Part shown: positions 233 through 18,219 of the stretch, piece after piece
How positions within the stretch are numbered: position 1 is the stretch's first letter
Layout: every line of letters begins with the position of its first letter
DNA from: Elusimicrobiota bacterium
GTDB lineage: Bacteria > Elusimicrobiota > Elusimicrobia > Elusimicrobiales > UBA9959
Assembly (NCBI GenBank): GCA_037137395.1
Contig: JBAXKK010000044.1
Coordinates: 1-20,549 of the forward strand
DNA length: 20,549 nt
Direction of reading: 5' to 3'
The notes under the pieces: generated by a model
Told to the model about the DNA's origin: nothing
Database searches by the model: none
Seen by the model: the letters and a program-made list of their open reading frames with translations, nothing else
Position numbers and translations under genes: made by a program

Positions 233-1618
233 ATGGACAAACTGAAGATTCTGGTAGTTGAAGATGAAAATCCGGCACAGGCGGTCATGGCGGCCCAGTT
301 GACAGGCCATACAGTGGACTTCGCAAAAGATAAAAAGACCGCCCAGAAAAAACTGGCTGGCGGTTCTTATGATCTATGCTTCCTGGACTTAATGCTGGGA
401 CTTGATGATGATTATTCGGGTTTGAAACTTATCGCGGACGCCAGATCAAGAGGGTTTTACTCCGTGGTTATGACAAGCTCGGATTCAGACGATATCATAA
501 ATAAGGCCTATGAACTCGGCTGTGACGATTTCTATATCAAAGGCAACGAAAAAGCAAATATCAGCGCCGTCATCGCCAAATACCTGCAGCGCGGGACAAG
601 CGGGAACCTTAACAAAGTCTTCTCCGAGGAGTTTATAACCGAAGACCCGGCAACGCGCGCCAACGTCACCGAAGCGCTTAAATACGCGGCCTCCGGCTCC
701 CCCATCCTTATTCTTGGCCCGACCGGCACAGGCAAAACCTGCCTGGCCCGGATAATACACAAGCATTCAGGGCGCGCTGGTGAATTCGTTTCCATGAACT
801 GTTCGGCCTATACCGAGGACCTCATGGAAGCGGAACTCTTCGGCTACCGGAAAGGCGCATTCACCGGAGCCAATGAAACCAGAAAAGGCCGGTTGCTCCA
901 GGCCAGTAACGGAACCTTATTTCTGGACGAGATAGGCTCCATGAGCCTTAACATGCAGACCAAGCTGCTTAAAGCCATTGAGGAGAAATCCTTTTACCCA
1001 CTTGGCTCCGATAAACCGGAACATTCCGATTTCAGAATCATCAGCGCCACTTTGGAAGACCTGCAAGCACTTATAACGCAAGGCAAGCTCAGGTTGGACT
1101 TCTTTCAGCGCATACACGGGTTTACCGTAACTTTGAAACCGCTGCGGGAACGCAAAGATGATATTTTCCCCCTCATACGGCAATTCACGCGCGGCGCGAG
1201 GCAGCTTTCATTCGCGCCGGACGCCAAAACTTTCATGCTTCAGTATGAATGGCCTGGCAATATACGGGAATTGAAGAAGCTGGTAGACCTGCTTGTTTCG
1301 GGCGCGGAAAACCGCGTCACGCTTGAAGCCATCCGTAAGCACCTTTCACAGGAACTTAAGCCCCTGCCGCCCGGCGGCTTCCTTACGGACGCGCAGTATA
1401 AATATGCCGTGGAAAACGGCCTGGACAGCGCGTCTGAACTGTTTACCTACGAGATAATCCGCCGCAATATGCAGGAATACAACAGTAACAAAAGCAAGGT
1501 AATGACCAATCTTAAGATCTCCACTAACCTGCTTTATGCCAGGTTAAAGAAATTCGAGCCAAACAAGGGGACTGAATCAGATGGAATCAAATCTTGTGGA
1601 AAGAAAACTGCTTCATAA
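233..1618 (+). CDS. NtrC-family sigma-54-dependent response regulator (REC + AAA+ + C-terminal HTH)
   Basis: N-terminal REC (ILVVEDE, FLDLML); Walker A GPTGTGKT; ELFGYRKGAFTGA with intact GAFTGA loop; Walker B LFLDEIG; WPGNIREL; Fis-like C-terminal helices. SD GGAGGGG precedes the ATG. Confidence 0.95.
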   Translation: MDKLKILVVEDENPAQAVMAAQLTGHTVDFAKDKKTAQKKLAGGSYDLCFLDLMLGLDDDYSGLKLIADARSRGFYSVVMTSSDSDDIINKAYELGCDDFYIKGNEKANISAVIAKYLQRGTSGNLNKVFSEEFITEDPATRANVTEALKYAASGSPILILGPTGTGKTCLARIIHKHSGRAGEFVSMNCSAYTEDLMEAELFGYRKGAFTGANETRKGRLLQASNGTLFLDEIGSMSLNMQTKLLKAIEEKSFYPLGSDKPEHSDFRIISATLEDLQALITQGKLRLDFFQRIHGFTVTLKPLRERKDDIFPLIRQFTRGARQLSFAPDAKTFMLQYEWPGNIRELKKLVDLLVSGAENRVTLEAIRKHLSQELKPLPPGGFLTDAQYKYAVENGLDSASELFTYEIIRRNMQEYNSNKSKVMTNLKISTNLLYARLKKFEPNKGTESDGIKSCGKKTAS

Positions 1619-1772
1619 AATCCGTTCGCAATCCGCAAGCCTTAAAACCATTGCGGAAATGTTCAAGACCGGCACCGCTGAGAAAAAGCTGGAATTGCTT
1701 GCCCTTATGAAGGAAGCAGGGCAGGATATAATGGATTGCCTGTCCCGGCTTGAGAAGGATTTAAAAGCCTAA
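1581..1772 (+). CDS. 63-aa helical microprotein resembling a stand-alone HisKA/DHp domain
   Basis: SD-like AAGGGG upstream; overlaps the regulator's 3' end. LLHKIRSQ...EKK...DI...LEK parallels the kinase's VAHDIRSP...EKK...DI...LEK. Confidence 0.65.
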   Translation: MESNLVERKLLHKIRSQSASLKTIAEMFKTGTAEKKLELLALMKEAGQDIMDCLSRLEKDLKA

Positions 1773-3925
1773 CTCCAGGGCGGAGTTTTGTCTATCACTT
1801 TAAGCCAGGGTAAGTGAGCGAAATCTTCCGGCATGTGGCCGGTCTCAAGCGTTATATTGTTATAACCTTTATTGTGCAAATCCTGCGCGATATTCTCGCC
1901 TTTAACGCCGTCCTCCTCGTCGTCCAGCTCTGAATCAAGATAAATAGGCGTCTCTTTGGGGAATTCTTCTATCCGGGCGAGAAAATCGGTCGGATTGTCG
2001 AAGATAACGAGCTTTACGCCTTTTGCTTCCGCGACTAATTCCCAACTCATGCGGGCCACTTTATCATCATCCACTAAAATGGCGTCCACCTGGCCGGGGA
2101 CAGAAACAGCTTCCGGTTTTGCATCAGACTTTTGAATCGTTATCGGAACCAAGCTTGCCAGGCCCTTGTGTATCATCCGCACTTTTAAGCGTTTGCATTC
2201 GTCAATTATGCGCTTCTCTTCGCAGCGACTGGTGACCAGTATTGTTTTACCACACAGGTTTAATTCCTCGGCAAGGCTCAAGCCGGTTTCTTTATAACCT
2301 ACAAGCTCATAGTCAAAAAGACAAACGGCGGTTTGAGCTTCGGCCGCATTGTTTCTTATCCATTCGCGCAATTTGTCCGGCTCGCTGAAATGAATGGCTT
2401 CAATACCGTGCTCCTTAATTCTTGCCGATTCAAACCGGCCATCCCATACCTGATGAATAGTGGCGTCATCATCCAAGACTACCACAGGCCGGCCCGGAGG
2501 AAGCTTAAGCACAGCCACAAATCCTTCCGGCGCCGACGCTTTGGGCAGTTTTATCGTAACCGTCGTCCCTTTCCCCAGCTCTGACGTTATGTTTAGGTTG
2601 CCGCCCCAGCTTTCCGCCGTAGTCCGCGCATGATACAAACCTAAGCCCGAACCGCCGGCTTTGCCGTGCGTCTCACCCCTTTGGCCCAGTTTGGCCAGGA
2701 TTTCAAGCGGAATTCCTTTGCCGTTGTCGGTTACTGTTAAAACGACATTTCCCGCATCCTGGCCTAACTCCACAGACACCTTACCTTTATCGCCCAATAC
2801 TTCAACGGCATTATTCACCAAATTAGACACCATGCGTCTGAATTCAACCGGCTGTATCCTAGCGAATAGGCCGTAGGATTCCTGTGTTAACTCAAAATCG
2901 ATATTGATGCCGGGCTTTGATTCAAATTGCAGGCGTTTCTCGGTGATAACCGGATCTATTATGCTTGAAAGCAGGCGCGTTGCCGACGATTCTTTGTTTT
3001 CGGCCGCGGGAGAACCATCAATCGCGACAGTTTTGGCCTGTTGCCGGTTTTTTTCAAGCAGATTATTGGCGATATCGTGTATGCGGTTAACGGCATGACG
3101 CACCATAACACGCTTCTTTTCCGGCAACTCCGCCGTATCTTTAAGCGCCACGTCCAACGCCACCAGGGGAGAACGTATGTCATGCGCCACCTGCGCGGCC
3201 AAATCTGATGTGGCTTTTGAAACGGCCAGTTCGCTCTCGAACTGAGCAGCTTGGCTAAGCGCTACGCTCATGCGGTCCGTCATCTGCGCGAAAGGCGTGC
3301 CAATGATGCCAGCAGGCAAGCTGTTGATGTGTTTTTTTATGGAATCACGGATTATATTGCTTTGACCGGAGGATGTTATAGCGTTTATCTCGTTAACAGA
3401 TCGCTCTATGGCTAATAAAGTCTGTATAGCACCAAGATTAGAAATAGCAAGCAAACCTAGGAAGAATAGAACCACGGTGATGAATAGGACATAATTTTGA
3501 GCAAACACCGAGGCATTAACGTCAACCAGATCTATAACATATTCAAGCCGTCCCAGCTCCGCGCCATTGGAAACAAAAGGCATATTATGAGCCATCTGTA
3601 CGCGGGGCCGGTCATAGAGATTACCGATTACAGCTTCTTTAAATATCCATTTACTGCCTTCAAACCCAATGGGACGGAAAGTGATGCGCTTTATATTGTC
3701 GTTCTTTATGCGCCACATTATACGTTGGGTCTCAAAAACATCGCCCTCAAGAAAAGCTTTTTCAAAATAGGCCGCATTCTGCCGCATCGCAGTCAGAAGC
3801 TTGTCATCGGCCACCCGTACTGCCGAGAATACCGAGAATATCTGCCAGAAAGCTACAAACGCCAATACTGACACGGCATAATGCCGCCAGTTATAAGCAA
3901 GTATCCGCACAAAAAATTTTACCAT
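1769..3925 (-). CDS. Membrane hybrid sensor histidine kinase with two C-terminal receiver-like domains
   Basis: Two hydrophobic TM segments flanking a short extracytoplasmic region; H-box VAHDIRSPL; N-box NLVNNA; DNGKG; GSGLGL; REC-like VVVLDDD..LFDYEL and ILVDDD..YLDSEL. Confidence 0.93.
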   Translation of the reverse strand: MVKFFVRILAYNWRHYAVSVLAFVAFWQIFSVFSAVRVADDKLLTAMRQNAAYFEKAFLEGDVFETQRIMWRIKNDNIKRITFRPIGFEGSKWIFKEAVIGNLYDRPRVQMAHNMPFVSNGAELGRLEYVIDLVDVNASVFAQNYVLFITVVLFFLGLLAISNLGAIQTLLAIERSVNEINAITSSGQSNIIRDSIKKHINSLPAGIIGTPFAQMTDRMSVALSQAAQFESELAVSKATSDLAAQVAHDIRSPLVALDVALKDTAELPEKKRVMVRHAVNRIHDIANNLLEKNRQQAKTVAIDGSPAAENKESSATRLLSSIIDPVITEKRLQFESKPGINIDFELTQESYGLFARIQPVEFRRMVSNLVNNAVEVLGDKGKVSVELGQDAGNVVLTVTDNGKGIPLEILAKLGQRGETHGKAGGSGLGLYHARTTAESWGGNLNITSELGKGTTVTIKLPKASAPEGFVAVLKLPPGRPVVVLDDDATIHQVWDGRFESARIKEHGIEAIHFSEPDKLREWIRNNAAEAQTAVCLFDYELVGYKETGLSLAEELNLCGKTILVTSRCEEKRIIDECKRLKVRMIHKGLASLVPITIQKSDAKPEAVSVPGQVDAILVDDDKVARMSWELVAEAKGVKLVIFDNPTDFLARIEEFPKETPIYLDSELDDEEDGVKGENIAQDLHNKGYNNITLETGHMPEDFAHLPWLKVIDKTPPWS

Positions 3926-5394
3926 CTAAACTCCGCCACCTCGGGATATTCCGTAAATCCTTTCCCGACAATTAAATTTTTAATATTCTCCGGGTAATAG
4001 AATTTTTCCACTTCCTGGAAAAGCGGCAAAACAGCGTATCTTTTCCCCAGCCCATCGGCGATCCTTTCAGCCATCCCCGCCGCAACAGGCCCCTCTTCCT
4101 CTTTAACCATCTTTTCGAGCAAAGCGGTCAACTCCGGCATATTAAAATCCACCAGACTGTCCTTCACAAGAAAATCCCTGAAAAAAATGTCATATTCGGG
4201 CTGCACAACGCTGAAATTTATCAAAACCATATCATATGGGTGCGGGCGGACAAAAAGCGTTTTAACGAGTTCCTGCACCTCATATTGCTTTATCTTTATT
4301 CGTATCCCGGTCTTACTGTGAAATTTTGCGGCAAACGCTTCCAGCGGGACCCGGCTTTCTTTCCTCCAATTCGCTAATATGAACGGTTTTAGCGTTTTGG
4401 CTCTTTCCAGGTAGGAATTACGGCATTCCTGCTGAGGCCTGCCGGAGTGCCCGCCGGGAATACCCATAGGTAGGAGCGTTTGAATATCATACAACTGTTT
4501 GGAATTAGGAAAAGCCGCCTGCCTGAATCCAGAGATATCGAAACAGTTATACAGAATCTCCCTGGATGTTTTATCCGGACTCGTCAAGATCAACCCCGAG
4601 GATTTTAACGGGACACTTTCAAACGATAAGAACCGTTCGGAAACCGTTTCCGGCAATACGCCATAAGGAACCCGGTTGAAATCGCTTAAATCTTTTCTCT
4701 CAAGGTTCCCTGAGAAATCCACATACTCCCATAGGCTTATTCGTTCATAACCCTTAGCGACAGATTTCTTCCGCTTCAAGACAATCTCGTTTTTTCCGAT
4801 GTTTTCTACCGAGAAAGGCCCCAAGCCCAGTTCCACATTCTCGCTGACTCCGAGAGTCGGCGCATTGACATACCGGGTCAGAAAATTCAAATAGCCTGTT
4901 TTCTTTTTTTTAAAGCTGACATCAAGACATTCTCCGGAGCGCACAATAGAAAAGTCAGGGGAGTATCTCCGTGTTACCGTCAGCAGGTATGTTTCGAAGT
5001 AGTCCAGAGAAAAGTTTTGCTTTTCATCGAATTTTTGACCCGTATCGGGGCAAAACACATATTTTGAGGAATCGACGCTTCGGGACCATTTTTTAAGGAT
5101 TCGCGATGAAAAGTTTTCACCGTCGTCCATCCTGAACAACGGCTCATGCGTCTGCTTGAGTATATAGAAAACCGCGTCCTCGTCAGCCAATGATGTAGAC
5201 ACTTTTTTTGGCAACCCGGGAAGATAAACGCCCCAAACTGGTGCCCCGGCTGCGGCCGAAGAATGCCCCGCCATAACCGAAAACATAACCATACAGGCGA
5301 CATATGCCCACGTTTTATTTTTCACGCTACTGAAATATATCGGCATAGTTTTTGCGGCCAGCCACGGCCGGCAAGCAGCATAAAATCGTATCAA
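3919..5394 (-). CDS. Family-5 (OppA/DppA-like) extracellular solute-binding protein; start uncertain
   Basis: Signal-peptide-like N-terminus; HEPLF..D...S.ILKKW, GLGPF.V, L.R and C-terminal VLPLF motifs typical of SBP_bac_5. Overlaps the kinase start; no ABC permease/ATPase nearby. Confidence 0.7.
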   Translation of the reverse strand: MIRFYAACRPWLAAKTMPIYFSSVKNKTWAYVACMVMFSVMAGHSSAAAGAPVWGVYLPGLPKKVSTSLADEDAVFYILKQTHEPLFRMDDGENFSSRILKKWSRSVDSSKYVFCPDTGQKFDEKQNFSLDYFETYLLTVTRRYSPDFSIVRSGECLDVSFKKKKTGYLNFLTRYVNAPTLGVSENVELGLGPFSVENIGKNEIVLKRKKSVAKGYERISLWEYVDFSGNLERKDLSDFNRVPYGVLPETVSERFLSFESVPLKSSGLILTSPDKTSREILYNCFDISGFRQAAFPNSKQLYDIQTLLPMGIPGGHSGRPQQECRNSYLERAKTLKPFILANWRKESRVPLEAFAAKFHSKTGIRIKIKQYEVQELVKTLFVRPHPYDMVLINFSVVQPEYDIFFRDFLVKDSLVDFNMPELTALLEKMVKEEEGPVAAGMAERIADGLGKRYAVLPLFQEVEKFYYPENIKNLIVGKGFTEYPEVAEFRW

Positions 5395-5402
5395 ACAGCC
5401 AC

Positions 5403-7001
5403 CTAACCTACCCGGTCAAATAAAAGGTCTTTTACCCGGCCGGCCCCAAGCTTAAACCCGGCGCACCTGCCGGCTCTTTCCCCAGAAAAACGCAGAGAGA
5501 GCCAACCCGCCGAAAACAAGTCGCCCTGAAGAAGTCGAATTTCCTCTTTTGGGGCATTCTTTCTTTCCAAGAACAGTTTTCCTTTTTCCGGCACAATGTT
5601 GTATTTAATATCCAACTCTTTACTGTAATACTGGCCGGCACAAGCCCGGCTTTTTTCCCCCGAAATAGCCGGTGGGGTTATTTTTTTATAAGTCTCTTCC
5701 TTTCCTGTGCGCTCCTTGACCAAAGCCGTTCCGGCGCCCTTATTCCTTCCAGCGCAGAATGTTATATCAAAAGCGCCTCCCGTACGGGTAAAATGATATG
5801 GACCCACCGGCTCAAGCATATAGTTCCCGCCACCTGAACTATAAAACAGATTCCCGTCCTTTGTTAATATTTCCAGGAAATCCTCGCTTTCGGTGTTTAA
5901 GTAAACGCCTTCGATCTCTTTCATTTTACCTATTGAGGCCGGAGAGGCGCGTTTTGCGACCGGCCTAAGCGGAATACCGGTCATTTCCCCGCCTAGACAG
6001 ATATCCGTTATCTGCCAGGCAATACGCGCAGGGTTCGCCTGACTGAAATTGGAAAGGCAGATCACGGAAAAATTTTTCTGCGGAAATCGCAGAATTTCAG
6101 TTCTATAACCTATCCACGCTCCTCCATGAGTTATCGTTTTAAGGCCCCTGTACGTGCCGAGAAACAAGCCGTGCGCATAATTTAATTCTGTGCCGTCATC
6201 AAGACGACCTGTTGTAGTTATTTTTTCTATCAGTTTTTGGCCGCCTCCGGCCAGCTTGTTATGGTAGAAATTCTGGTCCCAAAGGAACAAGTCCTCCACC
6301 GTGGTATTCACACCCCCGTCCCCGACCACGTCAAAAATGGAGAAATCCGCCCTGACCCCGTCCAGCTCGACAGAATAGCCGGAGGCCCGGTTCTTCACAA
6401 TCGAGGTAAACACATCGTGGAAATGGGTATTCTTCATACCAAGAGGGGAAAAGATATTTTCTTCAGCAAATTCCCGCAGTGACTTTCCGGAAACGCGTTT
6501 TACCACCACGCCGAGCAACAGATAGCCGGAGTTGCAATACAGGAATTCCGCGCCCGGCCTGAAATTCGGGTCGCGTTGTTTTGAAATAAGCCCGATTATC
6601 TCTTCTTCCGGGTACTCATTTTCATACCGCATCCCGGCAAGGTCCATAAGGGTCAAATAATCCCTTATACCGCTTATGTGATGTATTAAATGCCGTAACG
6701 TGACAGGATACTTGTACAAACGCATTTCCGGTATATATTTCTGCACAGGGTCTTCAAGATTAAGCCGTCCCTTTTTCTCAAGGATAGCTATACAGAACGC
6801 AACAAATTGTTTCGAGGTGGATCCGATATCAAACACCGACCTGGAAGAGATCGGGATATTGTGTTCCAGATTGGCCATTCCATAGCCGTGTTTATAAACA
6901 ATTTTTCCGTTATCCACTATCCCCAAAGCATATCCGGGAGAGCCGGGCTTATCACATTCAGAAAATAAACTGTCAATTTTATCGATATCCACTGGTTTCA
7001 T
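5403..7001 (-). CDS. Serine hydrolase, beta-lactamase/PBP-like (peptidase S12) with C-terminal extension
   Basis: SxxK (IGSTSKQF), YxN (YCN), HGG motif, LIHHISG. Start reassigned to ATG 7001, which forms an ATGA overlap with the upstream rSAM stop. No signal peptide evident. Confidence 0.9.
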   Translation of the reverse strand: MKPVDIDKIDSLFSECDKPGSPGYALGIVDNGKIVYKHGYGMANLEHNIPISSRSVFDIGSTSKQFVAFCIAILEKKGRLNLEDPVQKYIPEMRLYKYPVTLRHLIHHISGIRDYLTLMDLAGMRYENEYPEEEIIGLISKQRDPNFRPGAEFLYCNSGYLLLGVVVKRVSGKSLREFAEENIFSPLGMKNTHFHDVFTSIVKNRASGYSVELDGVRADFSIFDVVGDGGVNTTVEDLFLWDQNFYHNKLAGGGQKLIEKITTTGRLDDGTELNYAHGLFLGTYRGLKTITHGGAWIGYRTEILRFPQKNFSVICLSNFSQANPARIAWQITDICLGGEMTGIPLRPVAKRASPASIGKMKEIEGVYLNTESEDFLEILTKDGNLFYSSGGGNYMLEPVGPYHFTRTGGAFDITFCAGRNKGAGTALVKERTGKEETYKKITPPAISGEKSRACAGQYYSKELDIKYNIVPEKGKLFLERKNAPKEEIRLLQGDLFSAGWLSLRFSGERAGRCAGFKLGAGRVKDLLFDRVG

Positions 7002-7891
7002 AAACGCGTAACCTCTTGATTCTTTTTTGCCGAAGACAGTATCCCGGGGACGATATACTCGCATAACGCGCAGGGCGCGGAGTGTTCCCGAGACAAGCTG
7101 TCTTTTGATAGTCCGGCCATCCGTACAAGCTCGCCGAATGTGTGGCGGGAAACTAATTTATAGAACCGACTGCGCAAATGTGCCGCTATCGTCCGGTGCA
7201 CATACCTACTGTTCCCGGGCTTAGAAGCAAGAAAACCACAGCAGATGGTGAATCCGCGTCCGCAATTATAAACGAGCCGCCCGATATTCGGACATTTTTT
7301 CCGCAGCACCTTCGCCTCGAAAGCGGGGTATGAATAGTTAAGAGCGCTATACTTGGCGCGGCCTATAGGTAAAATCTTCTGGGTCGTAACGGGCACGCCT
7401 ACAAGCTTTAATTTGTTCAGGAAGATCAGGTCCAACGGCGCCTGTATGGCGCATACGAGGCCAAAAGAAAGGTTTAATTCGCGGCATGCTGCCTGCAGGT
7501 TATGGATACAGGTTTCGGGAACAAATTCCGCGTGGAATTTGTCATATGACATTTGCACACTGTTCAGCGCTTTAAAAGACTTGAGGGTTTTTACGGCCAA
7601 TGCAGGGGTAGAGGCAAAATAACCGTTCGTGATGATACTTATATGAATTTTATCCGTCCTATCTATTGAGGAAAGTATGCTGTTTATTTCTCCGGTAAAA
7701 AGAACCGGCTCCCCTCCCGTAAAGATCAGTTCCCGCGGCTTATTTCTATTTATCGCCGAAACCAGAAGCTCTATCTCTGATTTTGTAATTCTGCGGATGC
7801 CAAGATTTTTATCTACAAGACAATGTCGGCACCGAATATTACACGCGGTGCCGACTGTTATCCCCAGATCAAGCTTATGCTTAAGACTCAT
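6998..7891 (-). CDS. Short radical SAM protein with Cys-containing C-terminal (Twitch-like) region
   Basis: CNIRCRHC (CX3CX2C), FTGGEP, ITNG, SYDKFH; C-terminal CPN..C..CC..CALC. No N-terminal RRE. Confidence 0.9.
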   Translation of the reverse strand: MSLKHKLDLGITVGTACNIRCRHCLVDKNLGIRRITKSEIELLVSAINRNKPRELIFTGGEPVLFTGEINSILSSIDRTDKIHISIITNGYFASTPALAVKTLKSFKALNSVQMSYDKFHAEFVPETCIHNLQAACRELNLSFGLVCAIQAPLDLIFLNKLKLVGVPVTTQKILPIGRAKYSALNYSYPAFEAKVLRKKCPNIGRLVYNCGRGFTICCGFLASKPGNSRYVHRTIAAHLRSRFYKLVSRHTFGELVRMAGLSKDSLSREHSAPCALCEYIVPGILSSAKKNQEVTRL

Positions 7892-8073
7892 CCATGCTTC
7901 ACGACGCGAAGAGGCTCCGAGTCTCCAATTTCCTGAAGATCATTCGAAGCTAAAATACTGAGCTCCGTTTTTTGCACATCTGAAAGAGCCTTTACATACT
8001 GCATAGCATTGCACACGGAAAAAAGCCCCACTGAAACCAGGAAAGCCGCTATTACTTTATCTTTGTTTGTCAT
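7888..8073 (-). CDS. 61-aa small protein with signal-peptide-like N-terminus
   Basis: SD AAGGG; basic N-terminus, hydrophobic core and CNA cleavage-like site; ATGA-coupled to the rSAM gene. Confidence 0.7.
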   Translation of the reverse strand: MTNKDKVIAAFLVSVGLFSVCNAMQYVKALSDVQKTELSILASNDLQEIGDSEPLRVVKHG

Positions 8074-8095
8074 TTTATTTTTCCCTTAATATCTA

Positions 8096-8124: not shown

Positions 8125-8228
8125 ACTCTCTCTTTTGTCTCTTTTATCACTCTGGCCTAAGCGCCCCGGATTAATGAAAAGCGGACAATATAGATTACCC
8201 GAAATATCCCCGCTCTGTAAGGGCCTTT

Positions 8229-8251: not shown

Positions 8252-8261
8252 TTGTATACTT

Positions 8262-10580: not shown

Positions 10581-11757
10581 AGAAATACCAGAGAAGTTCT
10601 TTATAATACACGCAACTGCCGCCGCAAAAAGATTTCTGCGCTCTAAAATGCCCGGCGCGGCAGCCTCCGCCGCAAAGGAATTTTATCTTGCATTTCCCGC
10701 ACCCGGCCATCTCATCCACAAACGGTAACGCCCCGCAACTGCTTTTCCCCGGAATGAACGCCTTCTGCGAATCTTCTGTTAAAAGGCTGCCCATGTTGAA
10801 TTCTTTATCGCAAAGCTTGACACATGGATAAACATCGCCCTTTGGGGACACCGTTATGCTGTTTATCCCGGCCCCGCAGTGAAGGATAGGAAAGCCAGGC
10901 TTTCCAAAAAACATATTGTCGGAAATTTTCACGATGTCAAAAACCCCGAGGATATTTTTTTCCTCGGCAAACAATTTATCCATCAGGCTTTTGATCTGCC
11001 GCAACTCCGGCTTGTGGACATTATTGGCCATATTATCCTTGACGATAAAAAAGCCGGCCGCGATCTTCCTGTTTTTGAAATGCCGGTAAAATCCGAAGGC
11101 GTGCCGGATATTCTCCTTTGTGATAGTCTGCATTACCTTAAGCGGAATACCCGCCGCTTTTATTTTTTGGATATTGGCAAATACTCTTTGAAAAGAACCC
11201 TCGCTTCTGGTGAGCGAATTAACTTTTTCCGTCAGGCCGTCAAGACTTACCTGGATTTTCACTTTATTCTTGGAGCAAAACGCCAGGAGCTTATCCGGCA
11301 GCATCGTCCCGTTTGTCACTATTACTATCTCTTCGAAGGATTTTTTTACCGCGCTTTCCAGGATTCCAAGCAGATTCGGATGGCAAAAGGGCTCTCCGCC
11401 TATTAAGGTTAAGGACTTCACTCCCAGCTTTGCCAGCGATGCGAGTATCTTCTCATTATCATCCATTGATACATGACTTTTTTCCGAAGCCATCGCATAA
11501 CAGTATTTGCACTTAAGGTTACAATGATATGTGATGTTATAATAAGCAATTTTTATCAGGGCATCATTCCTGGCATACTCTTTGACCTCATCAACCGTTT
11601 TAAGCGCTTTCTGCTTTCCAAGTCTGGCTACGGCATCCGTTATCTTGGACTCATCATCGACACATGCCATAAACCGGTTTACGGCATCAACAACCACCAT
11701 TCCTTTTTGGCCGCTTTTTGAGTAGATAAAATATTTGTCGTTATATCGTTTGAGCAT
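10543..11757 (-). CDS. Radical SAM/SPASM peptide maturase (module B)
   Basis: CNLKCKYC, IGGEP, SLDG; SPASM CGAG..GDVYPC..CGKC..LCGGGC..C..C. Start reassigned to ATG 11757 because the longer ORF overlaps the precursor and hairpin. Confidence 0.93.
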   Translation of the reverse strand: MLKRYNDKYFIYSKSGQKGMVVVDAVNRFMACVDDESKITDAVARLGKQKALKTVDEVKEYARNDALIKIAYYNITYHCNLKCKYCYAMASEKSHVSMDDNEKILASLAKLGVKSLTLIGGEPFCHPNLLGILESAVKKSFEEIVIVTNGTMLPDKLLAFCSKNKVKIQVSLDGLTEKVNSLTRSEGSFQRVFANIQKIKAAGIPLKVMQTITKENIRHAFGFYRHFKNRKIAAGFFIVKDNMANNVHKPELRQIKSLMDKLFAEEKNILGVFDIVKISDNMFFGKPGFPILHCGAGINSITVSPKGDVYPCVKLCDKEFNMGSLLTEDSQKAFIPGKSSCGALPFVDEMAGCGKCKIKFLCGGGCRAGHFRAQKSFCGGSCVYYKELLWYFFDKILYRYAAAN

Positions 11758-11764
11758 ATTTTCA

Positions 11765-11798
11765 GGCCTCGCATGGCGCTTCCATGCCATGCGAGGCC
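11765..11798 (-). other. 13-bp perfect inverted repeat between precursor and maturase
   Basis: ggcctcgcatggc-N8-gccatgcgaggcc; no U-tract. Confidence 0.85.
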
Positions 11799-11810
11799 CG
11801 TCCCCTTTCC

Positions 11811-12017
11811 TTACAGAAACATGCAATAGCCGCTGGATGATTCCTGCACGCTTTCCGCTTCCATCTCCATCTCGCACAAGTCGCCTTTTTTCTGGGCGCT
11901 GCACATAAAGAGATTGAATTCATCCTTCTTCTTGGCGCTGCAGGCAAAAAACTCCACCCCTTTAGAACTCCGTGATCCGCACACACCCTTTTCGCTGCTT
12001 AATACTTTTTTGGTCAT
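11811..12017 (-). CDS. 68-aa Cys-containing RiPP precursor (module B)
   Basis: SD AAGGAG; directly after the conserved promoter; Cys at 13, 26, 39, 48 and 65; immediately upstream of the rSAM/SPASM gene. Confidence 0.85.
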   Translation of the reverse strand: MTKKVLSSEKGVCGSRSSKGVEFFACSAKKKDEFNLFMCSAQKKGDLCEMEMEAESVQESSSGYCMFL

Positions 12018-12041
12018 AATTTTCTCCTTTTCAATTTTTGC

Positions 12042-12076
12042 TGCCTACGCCCTCTACGGAGCAATTTTTATGGCAG
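12042..12076 (-). promoter_or_regulatory. Variant -24/-12 promoter, module B
   Basis: Minus strand CTGCCATAAAAATTGCTCCGTAGAGGGCGTAGGCA. Confidence 0.8.
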
Positions 12077-12163
12077 GGAGGATAAACAAACGGTTTCATG
12101 CAGTCCCATTGGAGAAATGAATGCTTGATGATATTTCAGGGATTTAAGAACAAACAAAAAGCC

Positions 12164-12241
12164 TCTCATTTTGATGTAAGCATTTTCATTTTGAAAATCC
12201 TCTCAATGAAGATTCGGCACGATTGCTTTCTCAAAATGAAA
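12164..12241. promoter_or_regulatory. Tandem palindromic enhancer (UAS) pair plus a third inverted copy, module B
   Basis: tctcattttgatg (12164-12176), tttcattttgaaa (12184-12196), tctcaaaatgaaa (12229-12241). Confidence 0.75.
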
Positions 12242-12282
12242 AAGATTCTATTATCCGGTGCTCTCATAAGGCTTTTTAGGCG

Positions 12283-13785
12283 CTACTCCTTCACCAGCTC
12301 TGCTATGTACTGAATGGCATTTTTTCGTTTACAATCCCGGAATATACGCGATATTTTCCAACCGGTCCCTTTGATGAGTTTTCGCATCTCCGCCTCACTC
12401 AAGAAAATATATTCGCGCCATCTCTCCGCAAGATTACGGAAGCGGCAGCGCCCCACACTCATTCCATAGTGCCTGCCACGCGCCGGATTGCCCTTATGGT
12501 ACAGCATATAGGCGCTGAAATCCTGTCCCCGTTCCCGGGGATCACGCACTTTGTGCAGGTCTATGGTTTCGGCCAGTATCCTGCCTGTAGGAGAGGTTGC
12601 CTTATAAAGTTTTCTCAACCGGCGCCGCGCCCTGGCCCCATCGCTTACCAGACCGAAGTTGTTGCCCATCATTATGACGGTATCAAAACTCCCGGCTTTG
12701 AAAGCTGAACACACTTCGTCCAGCGAAACGTTCACGGCTTTCCGCAAACCGCGCCGCCGCGCCACTTCGGCGGCAAGCGGTGAAACATCAATCCCCGTAA
12801 CATCCAAGCCCCGCTTCTGCAGGAAAAGGCCATATCGCCCGGCGCCGCATCCGACGTCAAGAACGCGCCCCGTTGCCGACCTCAGCGCGAACAGCTTGTG
12901 TTTAGGCCATTCCTTTTCGCTGTTAAAATAAACCTCCTTCCCCCAGCCCTTAAGCAATAAACCGTTGTCCAGTTCTGTTATATCCGTATCAGAACCGCCG
13001 TCCAGCCACGACTTGAGCGCCGCGCCGAAGGCGTCGTTCATATCCCTCCGCCTGAGCGCGGTTTTCCTCAGCACCATTACATACTGCGGCCCGCCGGACT
13101 TTATCAAGCGCTCTATCTCCCAGCCGCTGTCCAGCAGCATTCCATTGAGCTCAGCGGTACTGACAAACACATACTCAAACCACGGCGTCGCCATATCCTC
13201 AAACCGGACCCGCAGGCGCATTTGCCCCGCCATACGCCCGCGCAGCCTGTTTCGCTGCTGGTATCGCAAGTGGTCCGGATTATCCGTCAGGTACGGATCC
13301 CCTGTCTCGGCGATCAGCCTTCCTCCCGGCGAAGTTATCCTGTACAACGCCGCAAGCCGCTCCCTGGCGGCCTTGGGCCCGCCCATCAGGCCGAAATTGT
13401 TGCCCATCATTACCACCGTGTCAAAGGAGCCGTCGGGAAAGCGCCCTATCTCGGAAAAACACATTTGCCTGGTTTTTCTAAGCCCTCGCTGCCTGCAGAC
13501 TTTCAGCGACAGCGGCGAACTATCCAAACCGGTAACATCTATTTTTTTACGCTGCAGGTAAAGGGCATGTCGGCCGGCGCCGCAGCCCACGTCCAGCACG
13601 CGGCCTCTTGCGAGGTTGATGGCTTTTTTTTCAAAAGCAGGCCAGTCCTGGTAGTCCTTAAAGTACACTCCACCTTCCGTCTCAATAAAACCGTCGTCGC
13701 GCTCAATAAACGAAACGGTCGTGCCCCCATTATGCTGATGCTGAAGCCACCTTCCGAAAGCGTCTCCGATCTTTGGTTGTTTCAT
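12283..13785 (-). CDS. Tandem two-domain class I SAM-dependent methyltransferase
   Basis: Two copies of DAFG...GRVLDVGCGAGR...DVTG.D.SPL...FDTV.MMGNNFGL. ATG 13785 has SD GAGG; extended -10 TGGTAGAAT at 13828-13836. Confidence 0.9.
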   Translation of the reverse strand: MKQPKIGDAFGRWLQHQHNGGTTVSFIERDDGFIETEGGVYFKDYQDWPAFEKKAINLARGRVLDVGCGAGRHALYLQRKKIDVTGLDSSPLSLKVCRQRGLRKTRQMCFSEIGRFPDGSFDTVVMMGNNFGLMGGPKAARERLAALYRITSPGGRLIAETGDPYLTDNPDHLRYQQRNRLRGRMAGQMRLRVRFEDMATPWFEYVFVSTAELNGMLLDSGWEIERLIKSGGPQYVMVLRKTALRRRDMNDAFGAALKSWLDGGSDTDITELDNGLLLKGWGKEVYFNSEKEWPKHKLFALRSATGRVLDVGCGAGRYGLFLQKRGLDVTGIDVSPLAAEVARRRGLRKAVNVSLDEVCSAFKAGSFDTVIMMGNNFGLVSDGARARRRLRKLYKATSPTGRILAETIDLHKVRDPRERGQDFSAYMLYHKGNPARGRHYGMSVGRCRFRNLAERWREYIFLSEAEMRKLIKGTGWKISRIFRDCKRKNAIQYIAELVKE

Positions 13786-13870
13786 GGTCACCTCAATTGA
13801 AACCTATGTCTCGCAAAGCTTTTAATAATTCTACCATCTTCCTTAGCGGGATCACCCGCGCGGGCATATT

Positions 13871-15175
13871 TCAAATACCGCCTTCAAACGCCGCCGGGTA
13901 TGTTTTTGCGAAATAGCCTTCTGCGTCGCTGTGTTTAAGCCTTAAAAATTCAGGAAAACCCGGGATCAATAGAACGGCCGGCGCTGACAGCAGGATAAGC
14001 CCGCCACCGGCCACAAGCGTCGCGCTCAGGCCTGCGAAAGATATAGCGCTTCCCGCCAGAATCACACCGGCGGGCACAAACATCTGGTTAAAGAACATTA
14101 CGAGCGACAAGACCCTTGAACGGTATTGGTCGGGGACCGCCAGCGTGTTCTGCGTCATAAGCGGGATGTTTATGATCACAAGACCGGCGCCTATAGCGAA
14201 CATTAGCAGGCATTTGGCGGCGGGCGGCGCCCCCGAGCCCAGCGTCAGCAACCCGGCGCCCATGACAGCGATGCCCGCCATGACCAATTGATCACCGTGA
14301 AATCTTCTTGCAAGTTCTCCCATAACCAAAGAGCCGGCGATAATCCCGGCGCTCACTCCGGATTTGAAAAGCCCCATAAGCCATACCGGCGTGGCGCCCG
14401 ACTCTTTGGCCAGCAGGGGAAAGGCTACGGTCATGGACGCGACCACAAAATTCAGAAAAGCGGCTAGTCCGCATATCCATAGCTGAAGAGGTATCCCGGC
14501 CACCAATTTGACGCCAGCTTTCAGTTCAGTCCGCCATACCGGGAAGCTGAACCGGTGATAGCACGCGCGCTGGCCGGAGTATCTCAGTCTGATAAACATA
14601 GTGGCGCCGGCGCCGGCGAAGTATGACAGCGCGTCACAAAAGAACGCTATTTTTATGCCGTATTTAGCGGAAACGAAGCCGCCCACTATTCCGCCGATAA
14701 TCGCCGCCGCCGCAGTCATGGAGTTGGTATGGCGGTATGCCTTCTGCAGGCTGTCAGGCCCCACCATCTGCGGAATTATGCTGTCCGCAACGCTTGAAAA
14801 AAGGGCGGAACCGGCCGAGGACAGGATAAAAAGCGTGATGAGGACCGGAAGACTGAACGAGTCCGTCCAAGCCAGCGCGCATAGCAATACGGAAAAAACG
14901 CCGCGCCAGATGTCGCTGATAATCGCCAGCCATTTCCTGGAATATTTATCTCCCAGCGGCCCGAAAAGAGGAAGGAGAAAAATGCGCACCAGGCTTACGG
15001 GGGCGAAAACAGCCGCTATCTGAACGGCCGAGCCTGTTTTTTCGGCTACCCACCACAGCACGGCTATCTCCGCGCAGGCGTCCCCCAAACCGGAAACAAA
15101 CTGCCCGGCCCGGAATAGCATAAAATCCGCCCCGCAGACGGAACGCGTCCCGCCGGAGCCGGAAGCGTCTTTCAT
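13871..15175 (-). CDS. MFS exporter (module A)
   Basis: About 12 TM segments; GQFVSGLGD; motif A GPLGDKYSRK; ATGA overlap with the rSAM stop. Confidence 0.9.
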   Translation of the reverse strand: MKDASGSGGTRSVCGADFMLFRAGQFVSGLGDACAEIAVLWWVAEKTGSAVQIAAVFAPVSLVRIFLLPLFGPLGDKYSRKWLAIISDIWRGVFSVLLCALAWTDSFSLPVLITLFILSSAGSALFSSVADSIIPQMVGPDSLQKAYRHTNSMTAAAAIIGGIVGGFVSAKYGIKIAFFCDALSYFAGAGATMFIRLRYSGQRACYHRFSFPVWRTELKAGVKLVAGIPLQLWICGLAAFLNFVVASMTVAFPLLAKESGATPVWLMGLFKSGVSAGIIAGSLVMGELARRFHGDQLVMAGIAVMGAGLLTLGSGAPPAAKCLLMFAIGAGLVIINIPLMTQNTLAVPDQYRSRVLSLVMFFNQMFVPAGVILAGSAISFAGLSATLVAGGGLILLSAPAVLLIPGFPEFLRLKHSDAEGYFAKTYPAAFEGGI

Positions 15176-16581
15176 AAAGAGCTCCCTGCGCCGGCTGGCT
15201 GGATGGCGGAAGCCTTATTTGCGGCGGCCCCGCGTCTCTTGTAATACAGATGCGTTTCAATCATCGCTTTTTCTATCGTGGCTTCGGTGTAGTAGCATTT
15301 TCCGGCTAAAAGCCGGTTTTCTCTATCCCTGGCACATCCACCCTGGCAGACGGGCAGGAATTTGCATGACATGCATTTGCTCTCTTTCGCGTCATAGATA
15401 TTTTCGTCCCACGCGCAGGTTTTATTAAAGCTCTCTATCGTCCCGTTTTCCAGCAATCTTCCGCATGCGGTGGAGGCATCGCCTATCAACGTGTCGCACT
15501 TGAAAACAAGCCCGTCGGCGCCTATTATCCACGAGTTCTTTTTCTGGGCGGAACACCAGCCCCCTATCGGATCCGGCACCGGCGCCGTTATCCTGCTCCT
15601 GGTATCCAGCTTGCCCAGCTTGTTGGCCGCGTTCAGGTAATAGTCCACCTGCTTTGAAAGCCCGTCCTCCATGCCGTAGATATCGCTTGCGATGGGCTGG
15701 ATATCGTCCCGGGAGGTGTCCATATTGGAAACCGCCCTGAAATATATTGAAAAACGCGGGTCCGACCCGAAAACCTTTTCATAATCCTCAAGCAACTCCC
15801 GGATCTCCGTATCCTGGCCTTTCATAAAGTTGACACGGATCTTAAAGGTAAAGCGCGCGCCCGCCCCGGCAGTTCGCTGGATGCCGCAGAGGTTCTTCCA
15901 GATAGTGTCAAAAGTCCCGCCCCCGTTGCGCAGAGATCGGACCTTGTCATGTGTTTTCCTGTTGCCGTCAAGTGTAACCTGGAAGAACGTGATACCGGAG
16001 TTAAGGTATTCCAGGAAAACCGGTGCGGACAACAAATAGCCGTTGGTGTATATTCCCGATGAGAACTTTATGCCGCTCCGGCCCAGCAGAAGACCGCGCA
16101 CTTCGCCCATGAACGTCAGAATGCCGTCTTTTTCCAGCGTGGGCTCCCCGCCGAACCAGTTTATCGCAAGCCCCTCCACACCGTTTATTTTCCCCGCGAT
16201 CAGGGCTAACGCCGCTTTATAGACCTCTTTTTTCATGGACATGCCCCTGCGATCGTATATAAAACAATAAGGGCACCTGAAATTACAGTTTTCAGACGGA
16301 AGCAGGGTCAGCCGGAGCTCCTTTTCACTGCGCGTAAAATCCATATATCTTTTTTTCACCTGCGCCGCTTCGTCAAAGCCGGCTTCAATCAGGAATCCCT
16401 GCTTACGCAGGTCATCTGCAAGCGGGGCATCCGAAGCGACATTGACCGAAGACAGCAGTTTGTCGCATTCGCACACGCGTTCACCCGAAAACGCCAGGAA
16501 AGCGCCGGTTCTTGTATTATAAAGAAGCAGGGAACCGTCTTCCGCACAGGTCTTGAATGTATATTTAGATATGTTAAGCAT
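15172..16581 (-). CDS. Radical SAM/SPASM peptide maturase with N-terminal RRE-like region (module A)
   Basis: SKY..LLLYNTRTG..L...GFL N-terminus; CNFRCPYC; WFGGEP; VTLDG; SPASM C..FKC..CMSCKFLPVCQGGC..C. Start reassigned to ATG 16581 (GGAG upstream). Confidence 0.93.
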   Translation of the reverse strand: MLNISKYTFKTCAEDGSLLLYNTRTGAFLAFSGERVCECDKLLSSVNVASDAPLADDLRKQGFLIEAGFDEAAQVKKRYMDFTRSEKELRLTLLPSENCNFRCPYCFIYDRRGMSMKKEVYKAALALIAGKINGVEGLAINWFGGEPTLEKDGILTFMGEVRGLLLGRSGIKFSSGIYTNGYLLSAPVFLEYLNSGITFFQVTLDGNRKTHDKVRSLRNGGGTFDTIWKNLCGIQRTAGAGARFTFKIRVNFMKGQDTEIRELLEDYEKVFGSDPRFSIYFRAVSNMDTSRDDIQPIASDIYGMEDGLSKQVDYYLNAANKLGKLDTRSRITAPVPDPIGGWCSAQKKNSWIIGADGLVFKCDTLIGDASTACGRLLENGTIESFNKTCAWDENIYDAKESKCMSCKFLPVCQGGCARDRENRLLAGKCYYTEATIEKAMIETHLYYKRRGAAANKASAIQPAGAGSSL

Positions 16582-16633
16582 AAGATTGCACGCTCCAGTG
16601 TCCTGTAATATGTAAATTACCGTTAAATTTGTC

Positions 16634-16666
16634 GGCAGCCGGGGCTGATATATTTCCCCGGCCGCC
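16634..16666 (-). other. 11-bp GC-rich stem-loop between precursor and maturase
   Basis: Transcript GGCGGCCGGGG-N11-CCCCGGCUGCC (one G-U pair), 5 nt after the precursor stop. Confidence 0.8.
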
Positions 16667-16671
16667 ACTTA

Positions 16672-16767
16672 CTATCTTACGCAGCATAGCCCGCAAACCC
16701 CTGCGCCATGATCCATCTCCTGCGCTTCCAGTTCTGTCTCCGAAACAGCAATTTTGTAAACTTCCAT
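16672..16767 (-). CDS. 31-aa RiPP precursor MEVYKIAVSETELEAQEMDHGAGVCGLCCVR (module A; not in ORF track)
   Basis: Translated by hand; SD GGAGG 8 nt before ATG; TAG at 16672-16674; acidic leader and Cys-rich C-terminus; lies between the promoter and the rSAM gene. Confidence 0.88.
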   Translation of the reverse strand: MEVYKIAVSETELEAQEMDHGAGVCGLCCVR

Positions 16768-16802
16768 TTTTAATTCCTCCGTTAGTTTTTGCAGTTTTTT
16801 TC

Positions 16803-16837
16803 TGCTTACACCCACTACGGAGCAATTTTCATGGCAG
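16803..16837 (-). promoter_or_regulatory. Variant -24/-12 promoter, module A
   Basis: Minus strand CTGCCATGAAAATTGCTCCGTAGTGGGTGTAAGCA. Confidence 0.8.
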
Positions 16838-16924
16838 ATGGATGCACCGGACGATTTTATGTGTTTCTATTGGGGAAATCAGGAAGTCAGCGGCGACAGG
16901 GGAGTGGGAAGCAAATGAAAATCA

Positions 16925-16957
16925 TCTCATTTCGAGATAACTATTTTCATTTTGAAA
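16925..16957. promoter_or_regulatory. Tandem palindromic enhancer (UAS) pair, module A
   Basis: tctcatttcgaga (16925-16937) and tttcattttgaaa (16945-16957), 20 bp apart. Confidence 0.75.
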
Positions 16958-16971
16958 GCCAACAGCGGGTC

Positions 16972-18030
16972 TTATAGATTGTTGGAAATATTCTTGGACA
17001 ATGATAAATCTTTGCGGTATTGCGCTACGGACTGGCGGGATAATTCTACGCCGTGACGGATTTTAAGCTCGGCGCGCAGCTTAGTGTTGTTCATATCGGG
17101 ATTTTCAACGGCTATGGCGTATAGCCGCTCTAAATTTATGGCTTTGGAACTGGGCAACAGAACCGACATAGGCGCTTCAGTGCCCCAGGGCATTTGTATG
17201 GATTTATTTGAAATAAGCCGATTAAGAACGCTGGGGTGGACTTCAAGTTCTGCGGCCAAAACTTTCTGCGGCAACGGCGCTCTGCGCACAGGTTCTCCGG
17301 TTAACAGGTAATCAGCCTGCCGCTCCATAACTATTTCTAGCGCGCGGTAAAGCGTGGATTTTCGCTTATCCGCCAGTTCCATGCGCCTTACGAGATTTTC
17401 CACGGCGGTTTGTTCAGAGGCAGGGAGACATTTCAACGCTTCTGAAAGTTTTTCCCCATCCACTTTATAACAGCCTTTCCATATTTCCCGATGAAAAAAC
17501 GCCAGGACAGGTTTACCGTTTTCAAGCTCTATGCCGGCCACGGCGCTGAACACTGTTGACGCTGGAGCTTCAGGTGCGCTTTCAAATTCAGCCTGTATGA
17601 ACGCGCGGTTAACGAAATCACGCAGGCGGGCGGCATCTTTGACGGTTATATCGCATTCCTCGGCGCGTTCCACATCGCTCATTACCGCGTCTTTCAGGAA
17701 GCAGGCTTCAAACTTTTCCTGGCCTATGCCTTGCATCAGACCAACCAGATCGCCTTTGCCGTCGGCCAGTTCCGGCAAGTCGCCAGCCGACATTTTAAGA
17801 CCGTAGCCGGCGTATTTCTTTGCGGCGTAACGAGCATTTGGGAATTCCGCCAGCCTGACAGCACCGGATGCTTTCAGTAATTGAAAAAAACGATTATCTT
17901 CTATTTTCTTGAGAAAACTCTCAAACTCTTCCTCAGACATCTCGGCCATCTGCGCTAACTTCATTGCGCCCATTGCCGCCGCTTTTGTTCTTGCGGAATG
18001 GCTAAAACCGAATTTATGGAATTTGCTCAT
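16972..18030 (-). CDS. Short divergent sigma-54 (RpoN-like) factor, ~352 aa
   Basis: Region I-like MKLAQMAEMSEEEFESFLKKIEDN; DBD RKSTL..IV..Q....G...PL....A.EL.VHPSVLNR...K....PWG; RpoN-box-like LSRQSVAQYRKDL. Start at ATG 18030 (SD AGGTGAGG). Confidence 0.85.
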   Translation of the reverse strand: MSKFHKFGFSHSARTKAAAMGAMKLAQMAEMSEEEFESFLKKIEDNRFFQLLKASGAVRLAEFPNARYAAKKYAGYGLKMSAGDLPELADGKGDLVGLMQGIGQEKFEACFLKDAVMSDVERAEECDITVKDAARLRDFVNRAFIQAEFESAPEAPASTVFSAVAGIELENGKPVLAFFHREIWKGCYKVDGEKLSEALKCLPASEQTAVENLVRRMELADKRKSTLYRALEIVMERQADYLLTGEPVRRAPLPQKVLAAELEVHPSVLNRLISNKSIQMPWGTEAPMSVLLPSSKAINLERLYAIAVENPDMNNTKLRAELKIRHGVELSRQSVAQYRKDLSLSKNISNNL

Positions 18031-18046
18031 AGCCTCACCTACGCAT

Positions 18047-18087
18047 ATTATAGCCGTTATGCAAAAATGGGGCAATTTTTACGGCAG
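18047..18087 (-). promoter_or_regulatory. Sigma-70 promoter of the sigma-54 paralog, overlapped by a variant -24/-12 site
   Basis: TTGCCC (18070-18075)-17 nt-TATAAT (18047-18052); CTGCCGTAAAAATTGCC at 18071-18087. Confidence 0.65.
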
Positions 18088-18219
18088 AGTTAGGGGGGCC
18101 AGATGACTTGGATATGAGACTGAGTGCTCGTCTGTATCTGATAGCCTTTTCCCTCAAACAAACATACGAATAGTTTTGCGGCAACGTAAACCGGCTATAC
18201 TGCGAATATGCTTGAGATA

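Follow-up and report, generated by a model that had tools for sequence, protein, structure and literature searches.

How might a bacterium switch on a set of peptide-modifying operons through a circuit whose parts, from receptor to sigma factor, lie together on one piece of DNA? The question is raised by the window analysed here, a stretch of 20,549 nucleotides (contig JBAXKK010000044.1 of assembly GCA_037137395.1, from an Elusimicrobiota bacterium). An island of ~18 kb within it (233-18086) encodes a solute-binding protein (SBP), a hybrid histidine kinase, an NtrC-type bacterial enhancer-binding protein (bEBP), a compact sigma-54 factor and three modules for peptides made by the ribosome and then modified post-translationally (RiPPs), in each of which a radical S-adenosylmethionine (rSAM) gene stands behind a small open reading frame (ORF), as an earlier note on the window had described. 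That note had read the locus as a quorum-sensing-like positive-feedback loop, and every gene that it named was found in the window by domain, profile and fold searches. Our analyses strongly support a regulon formed by the sigma factor, activator and promoters of the island, and by a narrow margin favour the whole model, an insulated peptide-signalling island in which a phosphorelay governs promoters with a GC dinucleotide at -24.

The window is one whole contig of a genome of 2.70 Mb (98.9% complete), labelled G000 below, which was assigned to Elusimicrobiota from named homologues; Gnnn denotes other genomes, Lnnn loci and Pnnnn protein representatives. The GC content of the window, 48.7%, is below that of the genome (52.4%). 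The bEBP gene (ntrC) and a 63-amino-acid (aa) ORF lie on the plus strand, and all other island genes, namely the sigma-54 gene and modules A, B and C, on the minus strand, with ntrC convergent to the kinase gene and outside the sigma-54 transcripts.

The sigma gene (16972-18030, minus strand) codes for a 352-aa protein that matches PF04552 above the cut-off and, by profile, the C-terminal helix-turn-helix (HTH) and RpoN-box DNA-binding domain of 5UI5 (E 3.8e-23). Its RpoN box, SRQSVAQYR, aligns with ARRTVAKYR and places a glutamine (codon 17032-17034) at the position of E. coli R456, departing from the canonical invariant box ARRTVAKYRE. Region I and the core-binding domain gave no Pfam AID or CBD match, and the Region I alignment is weak (2.2 bits); the top 29 listed matches of a fold search with the model are all sigma-54 chains (at most 426 columns, template-modelling score ~0.4). 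Across the genome there is a single full gene of the Sigma54_DBD family and a single strong match to Sigma54_activat, and both lie in the island. The earlier description of the factor as a divergent sigma-54 paralog stands as regards divergence in sequence, but not in orientation, the gene lying on the same strand as module A, nor as regards paralogy, the island copy being the only sigma-54 of the genome. A 24-codon remnant of the C-terminus of an Arg-type sigma-54, with its RpoN box, is present at C24:15007-15078. From this remnant and the lack of any GG-type promoter in the genome, G000 seems to have lost the canonical sigma-54 system.

Four matches to the core TGCyrTrAAAATTGC, at 8500, 12075, 16836 and 18086 and all on the minus strand, are the only ones in the 2.7-Mb genome, and they precede pepC1, pepB, pepA and the sigma gene, respectively. 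The mean count in 200 shuffles of the window was 0.0, a stricter version of the core was found in two of 301 phylum genomes (four copies in each, on one contig), and a repeat finder returned two shared families upstream of the modules. The common promoter sequences reported earlier for the three peptide modules were thus borne out. In all four promoters (C, 8483-8500; B, 12058-12075; A, 16819-16836; and that of the sigma gene) the 10-bp spacing and the GC at -12 are kept, and the -24 element is GC instead of GG. The sigma-gene promoter is dual (18047-18086, minus strand), its GC-type core (18069-18086) overlapping a TTGCCC-17-TATAAT element that would give basal sigma expression.

The change in promoter sequence is matched by a change in sigma factors across relatives. 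Among 61 related genomes, the GG motif was found at 49 sites in 12, 11 of which carry an Arg-type sigma, and at none in G000. The GC motif was found at 11 sites in the genome set, eight of them on three contigs with a Gln-type sigma and the other three as singletons, to be compared with three matches in the control. Two genomes, G004 and G032, carry both sigma types, and in these the GC sites are confined to the Gln contigs. A metagenome scan yielded 27 GC-motif loci, of which six are the DNA of the window or L002 again and five come from three further contigs; wherever such a locus contains a sigma gene, it is of the Gln type. The remaining 16, which lack N3 enhancers and island genes, were treated as chance and rejected as regulon members. 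One of the Gln-type contigs (L003, G032:C45) carries two Gln-type sigma genes at a distance of 9 kb; behind each come a GC promoter and a peptide cassette, and the two cassettes differ.

Substitutions at residue 456 were also found beyond the close relatives of the island factor. Among the 120 homologues in the matches listed, the box reads RR in 115, RQ in four and is incomplete in one, and the Gln sigmas form a single clade nested among Arg types (support 99.8 in a quick tree; sigma trees were built by quick and FastTree methods). Among the best 150 representatives at 50% identity, eight of 147 readable boxes have Q, H, W or S at this residue (two incomplete sequences and the mis-parsed P0200 being excluded), and three of 60 further genome loci have Q, P or H (G323 Gln, G377 Pro, G269 His). 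The G323 factor falls on a branch separate from the Gln clade of the window, and, as tree neighbours near the base, G323 and G377 may share one origin. The sole such site in the G323 genome, TGACATAAAAATTGAC, stands behind two enhancers and reads TGACAT (-24 GA), and the sole one in G377, TGTCAGAAAAATTGAC, reads TGTCAG (-24 GT). The G269 gene is interrupted by two in-frame TGA codons, and a search for a promoter matching its His sigma found none. In a control of ten Arg-type class-level genomes, five had sites, and 14 of the 15 sites were GG, 11 of these 14 sharing a -12 TGA. Since these Arg-type controls keep GG, mostly together with that TGA at -12, the difference at -12 belongs to the group, and it is the -24 change that follows residue 456. 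In four such genomes (G383, G299, G204 and G440) the Arg-type promoters read TGGCATAAAAATTGAT, with -12 GC changed to GA across a group.

Experimental work on E. coli sigma-54 gives these differences a frame. In the accessible part of PMC12096077, R456 is called 100% conserved, with no residue but Arg found at the site, the question is posed why sigma-54 recognition never diversified, and R456 mutants are described whose -24 preference is moved, with Y, M, W or F towards GC, with H towards GA and with L towards GT. The engineered R456H/Y/L factors of that source and the present loci thus share the residue, the -24 dinucleotide and the GC, GA and GT outcomes; what sets the island sigma apart from those mutants, as described there, is that it is natural, carries Gln (Pro in G377), is compact at 352 aa and has an altered activator-enhancer pair alongside. 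It is very probable that sigma factor and promoter code changed together at the contact between R456 and -24, and the idea of a dedicated sigma, raised before from gene content, is strengthened by R456Q accompanying the move from GG to GC. The loci are natural counter-examples, with matching promoter changes, to the fixed R456 of the accessible text of PMC12096077.

The activator appears to have been altered in the same lineage. The bEBP (233-1618, plus strand), the only one in the genome, combines REC and Sigma54_activat domains (E 1.5e-56) and carries the REC Asp (D52), Walker A/B, GAFTGA (at 208), Arg fingers and a C-terminal HTH, the last recognized by alignment, with no Pfam HTH_8 match. 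Its recognition helix is a variant, ISTNLLYAR, found in the window, L002, L076 and L102; other close NtrC homologues have IS[TK]R. The common enhancers claimed earlier proved to be pairs of TCA-N3-TGA sites ~80-170 bp upstream of the module promoters (8577-8591 and 8597-8611 for C; 12163-12177, 12183-12197 and 12228-12242 for B; 16924-16938 and 16944-16958 for A), with the two members of a pair 20 bp apart. GC promoters have N3-spaced enhancers in 9/11 cases and N2 in 0/11, whereas GG promoters have N2 in 64/84 and N3 in 7/84; the comparison rests on these direct counts, as the position weight matrix (PWM) for tandem enhancers presumes a 21-bp spacing and scores the A-C pairs and N2 relatives poorly. 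The DNA-binding helix of NtrC and the enhancer spacing (2 to 3 bp) were therefore altered in the lineage that also shows the sigma change. The best tandem PWM score of the genome belongs to an N3-spaced enhancer over the ntrC leader (191-226), just after a TATAAT (169-174), a probable autoregulation site.

What, then, would feed this activator? The kinase (1769-3925, minus strand) has two membrane segments around an outside domain of ~110 aa, an H-box HDIRSPL (H248), a HATPase domain and two REC-like domains (D538, D664). The 63-aa ORF next to ntrC (1581-1772, plus strand), a component absent from the earlier note, encodes a stand-alone HisKA/DHp-like hairpin with His12 and is a candidate phosphotransferase. 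His12 is invariant in 18/18 aligned sequences, a weak HisKA match was obtained for 8/18 (best E 0.004), ChpT gave no significant match (E 1.2), and the third match of an Atlas search has HisKA in 12% of its members. From its position and anatomy, the hairpin reasonably likely supplies the His step between hybrid kinase and NtrC.

The kinase is the last gene of module C, in which the ORFs pepC1, pepC2, rSAM C, S12 peptidase, SBP and hybrid kinase, all on the minus strand, overlap or abut behind promoter C; the co-orientation of SBP and kinase downstream of this promoter, stated earlier, was confirmed. The 60-aa ORF pepC1 (8262-8444) has a hydrophobic N-terminus and was seen only in GC-type islands. 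The 61-aa precursor pepC2 (7888-8073), with a conserved hydrophobic leader and a hypervariable C-terminal core, is the candidate autoinducer. In YydG/EpeE epimerases the second Cys of a CC pair is the hydrogen donor. The enzyme rSAM C (6998-7891) is a putative peptide epimerase of this type by profile and alignment: it aligns with 8AI1 at E 3.4e-27 (next family 2e-9), C17/21/24, C200, C217/218 and C274/277 are invariant in 18/18, and its score against TIGR04078 is 68.9 against a cut-off of 300 bits. The serine peptidase (5403-7064; SxxK, YxN and HGG motifs; Pfam Beta-lactamase E 3.5e-58) has its best NCBIfam match, below the cut-off, to D-aminopeptidase. A signal containing a D-residue would fit an epimerase-like rSAM C beside a neighbour resembling D-aminopeptidases. 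The SBP (3919-5394, start likely 5346) overlaps the kinase start. Its earlier assignment to family 5 holds at the level of fold, the model (predicted local distance difference test 68.8) matching the NikA/DppA/OppA fold in Foldseek (E 9e-21, probability 1.0), but not by sequence: Pfam (including PF00496) and NCBIfam gave no match, and a single-sequence search of the PDB was empty.

Conserved co-occurrence, proposed earlier as a check on the circuit, was found: the sigma gene adjoins a bEBP gene in 25 of 31 loci (of the other six, three belong to the Gln clade, two are sister loci and one lies where its contig ends), and the module-C order recurs in 21 distinct loci. In these 21, pepC2 is always followed by rSAM C, by the SBP in 20 and by the kinase in 18, the remainder being cut off; between rSAM C and SBP stands a peptidase (of the S12, M3 or transglutaminase-like kind), a GNAT-like protein, or no gene. 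Members of the module-C SBP family are present in 13/61 genomes, and in 12 of these a compact sigma-54 match was obtained as well; a same-strand sigma-54 site lies within 4 kb in 14 of the 18 module-C loci for which 1.7 kb or more of upstream DNA is available.

Within this conserved order, a block appears to be exchanged. Across 14 complete module-C sets, the final 20 residues of pepC2 are on average 18% identical and its leader 60%, as compared with 40% for both rSAM C and SBP and 79% for the part of the kinase outside the membrane. Gene order in L102 is that of the window, with identities of 92% for ntrC, 82% for the kinase, 91-95% for module B and 90% for sigma, against 38% for the SBP and 41% for rSAM C; DNA similarity between the two ends at 3984, in the conserved tail of the SBP gene, and returns at 7994, in the pepC2 leader, delimiting a swap block at 3985-7993. 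Whichever of four definitions of the core is used, similarity of the cores correlates with that of the SBPs (rho 0.30-0.43, permutation p 0.001-0.008, n=15; partial on rSAM 0.21-0.37), p values that are overstated, the Mantel tests being run on related loci and linked genes. Correlation of core with rSAM is lower (rho 0.15-0.25), and none was found between core and kinase or for the leader (0.09). This co-variation of core and SBP is suggestive of a peptide signal, and module C would behave like an agr-type specificity cassette, whose swapped part comprises the peptide core, the YydG-like enzyme and the binding protein.

On these grounds the following mechanism is proposed. Sigma-70-type promoters would supply basal transcripts of sigma, ntrC-hairpin and module C. 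The enzyme rSAM C would modify pepC2, probably by epimerization, the S12 peptidase would trim the product, and the core would reach the cell exterior, where the family-5 SBP would bind its cognate core and dock on the conserved outside domain of the kinase. Phosphate would then pass from the kinase His to a REC Asp, to His12 of the hairpin and to D52 of NtrC. Phosphorylated NtrC would bind the N3-spaced enhancers, sites recognized by sequence and co-variation, and the Gln-type sigma-54 would open the promoters of GC type that precede modules A, B and C and its own gene, by which signal, receptor and sigma would be amplified and the cargo RiPP cassettes switched on. The R-to-Q and GG-to-GC changes, with those in HTH and enhancers, would shield the island from Arg-type systems in the same cell. 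To peptide autoinduction with a positive sign, which is read from gene layout and co-variation, we give an even chance.

Several observations weigh against this picture. As to the code, the Gln clade of the window represents one evolutionary event, Gln pairs with GC in the island but with GA in G323, G323 and G377 offer one site each, and G030 has three GG sites with no sigma found (genome 92% complete). In the accessible part of PMC12096077, R456Q and R456P were constructed and are outside the seven mutants that lose wild-type promoter activity; the Gln sigma may thus still read GG, and the insulation may be one-way. As to the regulon, the sigma promoter has no enhancer within 50-180 bp, L076 is mixed, with an N-type NtrC and an N3 enhancer before a GG promoter, and four of the 18 module-C loci that extend 1.7 kb or more upstream lack a strict sigma-54 site within 4 kb. 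As to the signal, module C has no exporter gene, the S12 peptidase has no hydrophobic leader, the top fold matches of the SBP mix nickel/metallophore binders with peptide binders, L081 (outside the 21-locus count) has no kinase behind its SBP, and the genome encodes at least 14 other kinase-like proteins.

The alternative that survives best, though we hold it unlikely, keeps regulon and relay and gives them a negative sign or a role in product sensing or immunity, ligand-bound SBP making the kinase a phosphatase or the SBP reporting RiPP build-up. In LuxPQ the ligand-bound binding protein does turn the kinase into a phosphatase, and the SBP, hybrid kinase, candidate His relay and sigma-54 bEBP of the island parallel that Vibrio relay; some YcaO and other rSAM cassettes of relatives carry their own family-5 SBP and kinase, and the enhancers over the ntrC leader could be taken to suggest autorepression. 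Against it speaks the layout itself, with receptor, kinase, precursor and sigma all behind activated promoters, as in a self-amplifying circuit.

It is more doubtful that the ligand of the SBP is an environmental solute such as a metal or metallophore, the module-C genes co-varying through linkage only. NikA comes first by fold, the best profile matches of the SBP are nickel/CntA binders (E 7e-4), the identities of SBP and rSAM correlate too (rho 0.51), and the 2'-dG-II riboswitch of relatives, described below, shows a non-peptide input. One fixed ligand is, however, hard to reconcile with identities of 33-55% among the SBPs when the adjoining kinase domain reaches 79%, and the core tracks the SBP better than it does the adjacent rSAM gene. 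Least probable is a real sigma-54 regulon in which kinase and SBP are cargo for another regulator, R456Q having merely relaxed specificity and the promoters having drifted by gene conversion. The many other kinases of the genome, the single origin of the Gln clade and the place of R456Q outside the loss-of-recognition mutants in the accessible part of PMC12096077 speak for it; against it, the kinase is convergent to ntrC-hairpin in the window, L002, L020, L046, L048, L076 and L102, all 11 GC promoters took the same base before unrelated cassettes, and other non-Arg lineages also lose GG.

The peptide-signalling model, which remains the preferred one, can be set beside known systems. In Vibrio quorum sensing, LuxP/LuxQ, LuxU and LuxO are a periplasmic binding protein, a hybrid kinase, a small His relay and a sigma-54-dependent response regulator. 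The island has the same parts list (binding protein, hybrid kinase, candidate His relay, sigma-54 regulator), but its SBP has the family-5 fold and not that of LuxP, its putative relay is a DHp-like hairpin and not an HPt bundle, and it adds a probable peptide ligand in the same operon, RiPP operons as targets and an island-encoded sigma. In peptide quorum sensing by agr of staphylococci and Blp/Com of streptococci, a single autoregulated operon encodes the precursor, an enzyme that processes it, the receptor and the kinase. The island likewise joins precursor, maturase, receptor and kinase, with a hypervariable block swapped between conserved flanks; it differs in that the variable receptor is a separate binding protein beside a conserved kinase, the maturase is an rSAM enzyme, and output runs via bEBP and sigma-54 instead of a LytTR regulator and sigma-70. 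By analogy, the island would work like a LuxPQ-LuxU-LuxO relay joined to an agr-type cassette, belonging to neither family. The streptococcal SHP/Rgg systems also place rSAM RiPP cassettes under probable peptide-signal control; the island has no import step and would use a phosphorelay and an alternative sigma instead, and Pfam and NCBIfam scans of the 19 window proteins found no Rgg family member. With the B. subtilis epipeptide system yydFGHIJ/EpeE (PDB 8AI1; PMC13012085, as far as that source was accessible) rSAM C shares a full-length YydG match with aligned CP, CC and CxxC cysteines, whereas the module C family has an unrelated precursor, S12, M3, transglutaminase-like or GNAT-like partners, no ABC exporter, and SBP and kinase genes behind it.

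Literature searches turned up neither an account of this architecture nor a natural variant at R456, subscription papers being mostly outside our reach. The island predicts a design for peptide quorum sensing, in an almost uncultured phylum, that would combine a Vibrio-like binding-protein relay, an agr-like swappable cassette and a likely epimerized signal. A tentative generalization is that Elusimicrobiota practise rSAM-peptide quorum sensing with swappable pherotype cassettes, and that their island-borne compact sigma-54s repeatedly evolved new -24 codes (GC, GA, GT) and enhancer spacings, as orthogonal channels beside Arg/GG in one cell. Such factors and activators would offer synthetic biology a natural orthogonal set, and many RiPP cassettes that await study, of the rSAM/SPASM, class III lanthipeptide and YcaO kinds, are flagged by the regulon promoter.

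Cassettes of this kind are represented in the window by modules A and B, both on the minus strand. Module A comprises pepA (16672-16767), a Cys-rich 31-aa precursor ending in GVCGLCCVR, the rSAM/SPASM maturase rSAM A (15172-16668; best match TIGR04463, below the cut-off), a major facilitator superfamily (MFS) exporter (13871-15175) and then a tandem-domain S-adenosylmethionine methyltransferase (12283-13791). Module B comprises pepB (11811-12017), a Cys-containing 68-aa precursor, the rSAM/SPASM maturase rSAM B (10543-11904; best matches of the StsB and PapB types, below the cut-off), an MFS exporter (9321-10580) and a GNAT acetyltransferase (8618-9331); the precursors are ORF calls, and exporters, methyltransferase and acetyltransferase were named from domain matches. 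In relatives, the regulon promoters also precede class III lanthipeptide, YcaO and further rSAM cassettes. At L116, GC promoters at 2252 and 7001 accompany two precursors resembling class III lanthipeptides and a third, built on a repeat (TSGFNRAPEL x3), that has an rSAM gene.

The region between pepC1 and pepC2 holds further regulatory elements, all on the minus strand. A sigma-70-like promoter, TTGAAG-17-CAGAAT (8097-8125), lies before pepC2 at a position conserved in relatives, as read by eye from an alignment; it was not listed by a promoter scan, and a sigma-70 pattern matched 0/21 loci. Next to it (8126-8185) lies a decayed 2'-dG-II riboswitch with a terminator remnant, recognized by alignment and fold from intact copies at the same place in relatives, Rfam finding no riboswitch in the window. 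Many relatives have this riboswitch with its terminator ~130 nt before pepC2 (seven Rfam matches in eight sources), and the motif occurs in 12/21 module-C loci. Matches above the cut-off were found in 28/61 genomes, with five in G000, often before module C (L012:7970-8040, L040:11150-11220). The class is described in PMC6847200, as far as that text was accessible. In the present loci the closing stem of the aptamer overlaps the terminator, so it would be an ON switch. Upstream of the riboswitch position, a -10-like hexamer preceded by conserved direct repeats (GGGCC/GGACC) was seen by eye at 8200-8260 and suggests a further activator-dependent promoter.

The island is probably mobile as well as insulated. 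An att-like repeat of ~130 bp, with inverted arms around a 7-bp spacer, bounds it and several other low-copy contigs; its right half lies at the contig end (1-81, plus strand), by similarity to the ends of contigs C70, C115 and C142 of G000, and a degenerate left half at the island boundary (18220-18308, plus strand). The repeat is present also in G002 and G004, a search for a matching host tRNA found none, and an identification as attC was rejected, there being no GTTRRRY/RYYYAAC pair. The joined form was seen on one contig of run X2, but C142 has the same form and excision is hence not demonstrated. DNA contigs of run X1 cover the island with uniform depth, but the window may itself derive from X1, which is so not independent.

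Other compact sigma-54 proteins were met in the survey. A second, distant group lies in its own sigma-kinase-NtrC operons (L055-L059, L063-L065 and L067-L071), several of its members having changes at R455 with R456 kept. In P0160, P0163 and L197:527-2896, compact sigma-54 domains open proteins of 790-914 aa, which are possibly sigma-54 fusions. Beyond the repeat boundary of the island, the window holds a lipoprotein-like ORF of 173 aa (19693-20214) and the gene of a secreted trypsin-like protease (18508-19572), of which the genome has two paralogues.

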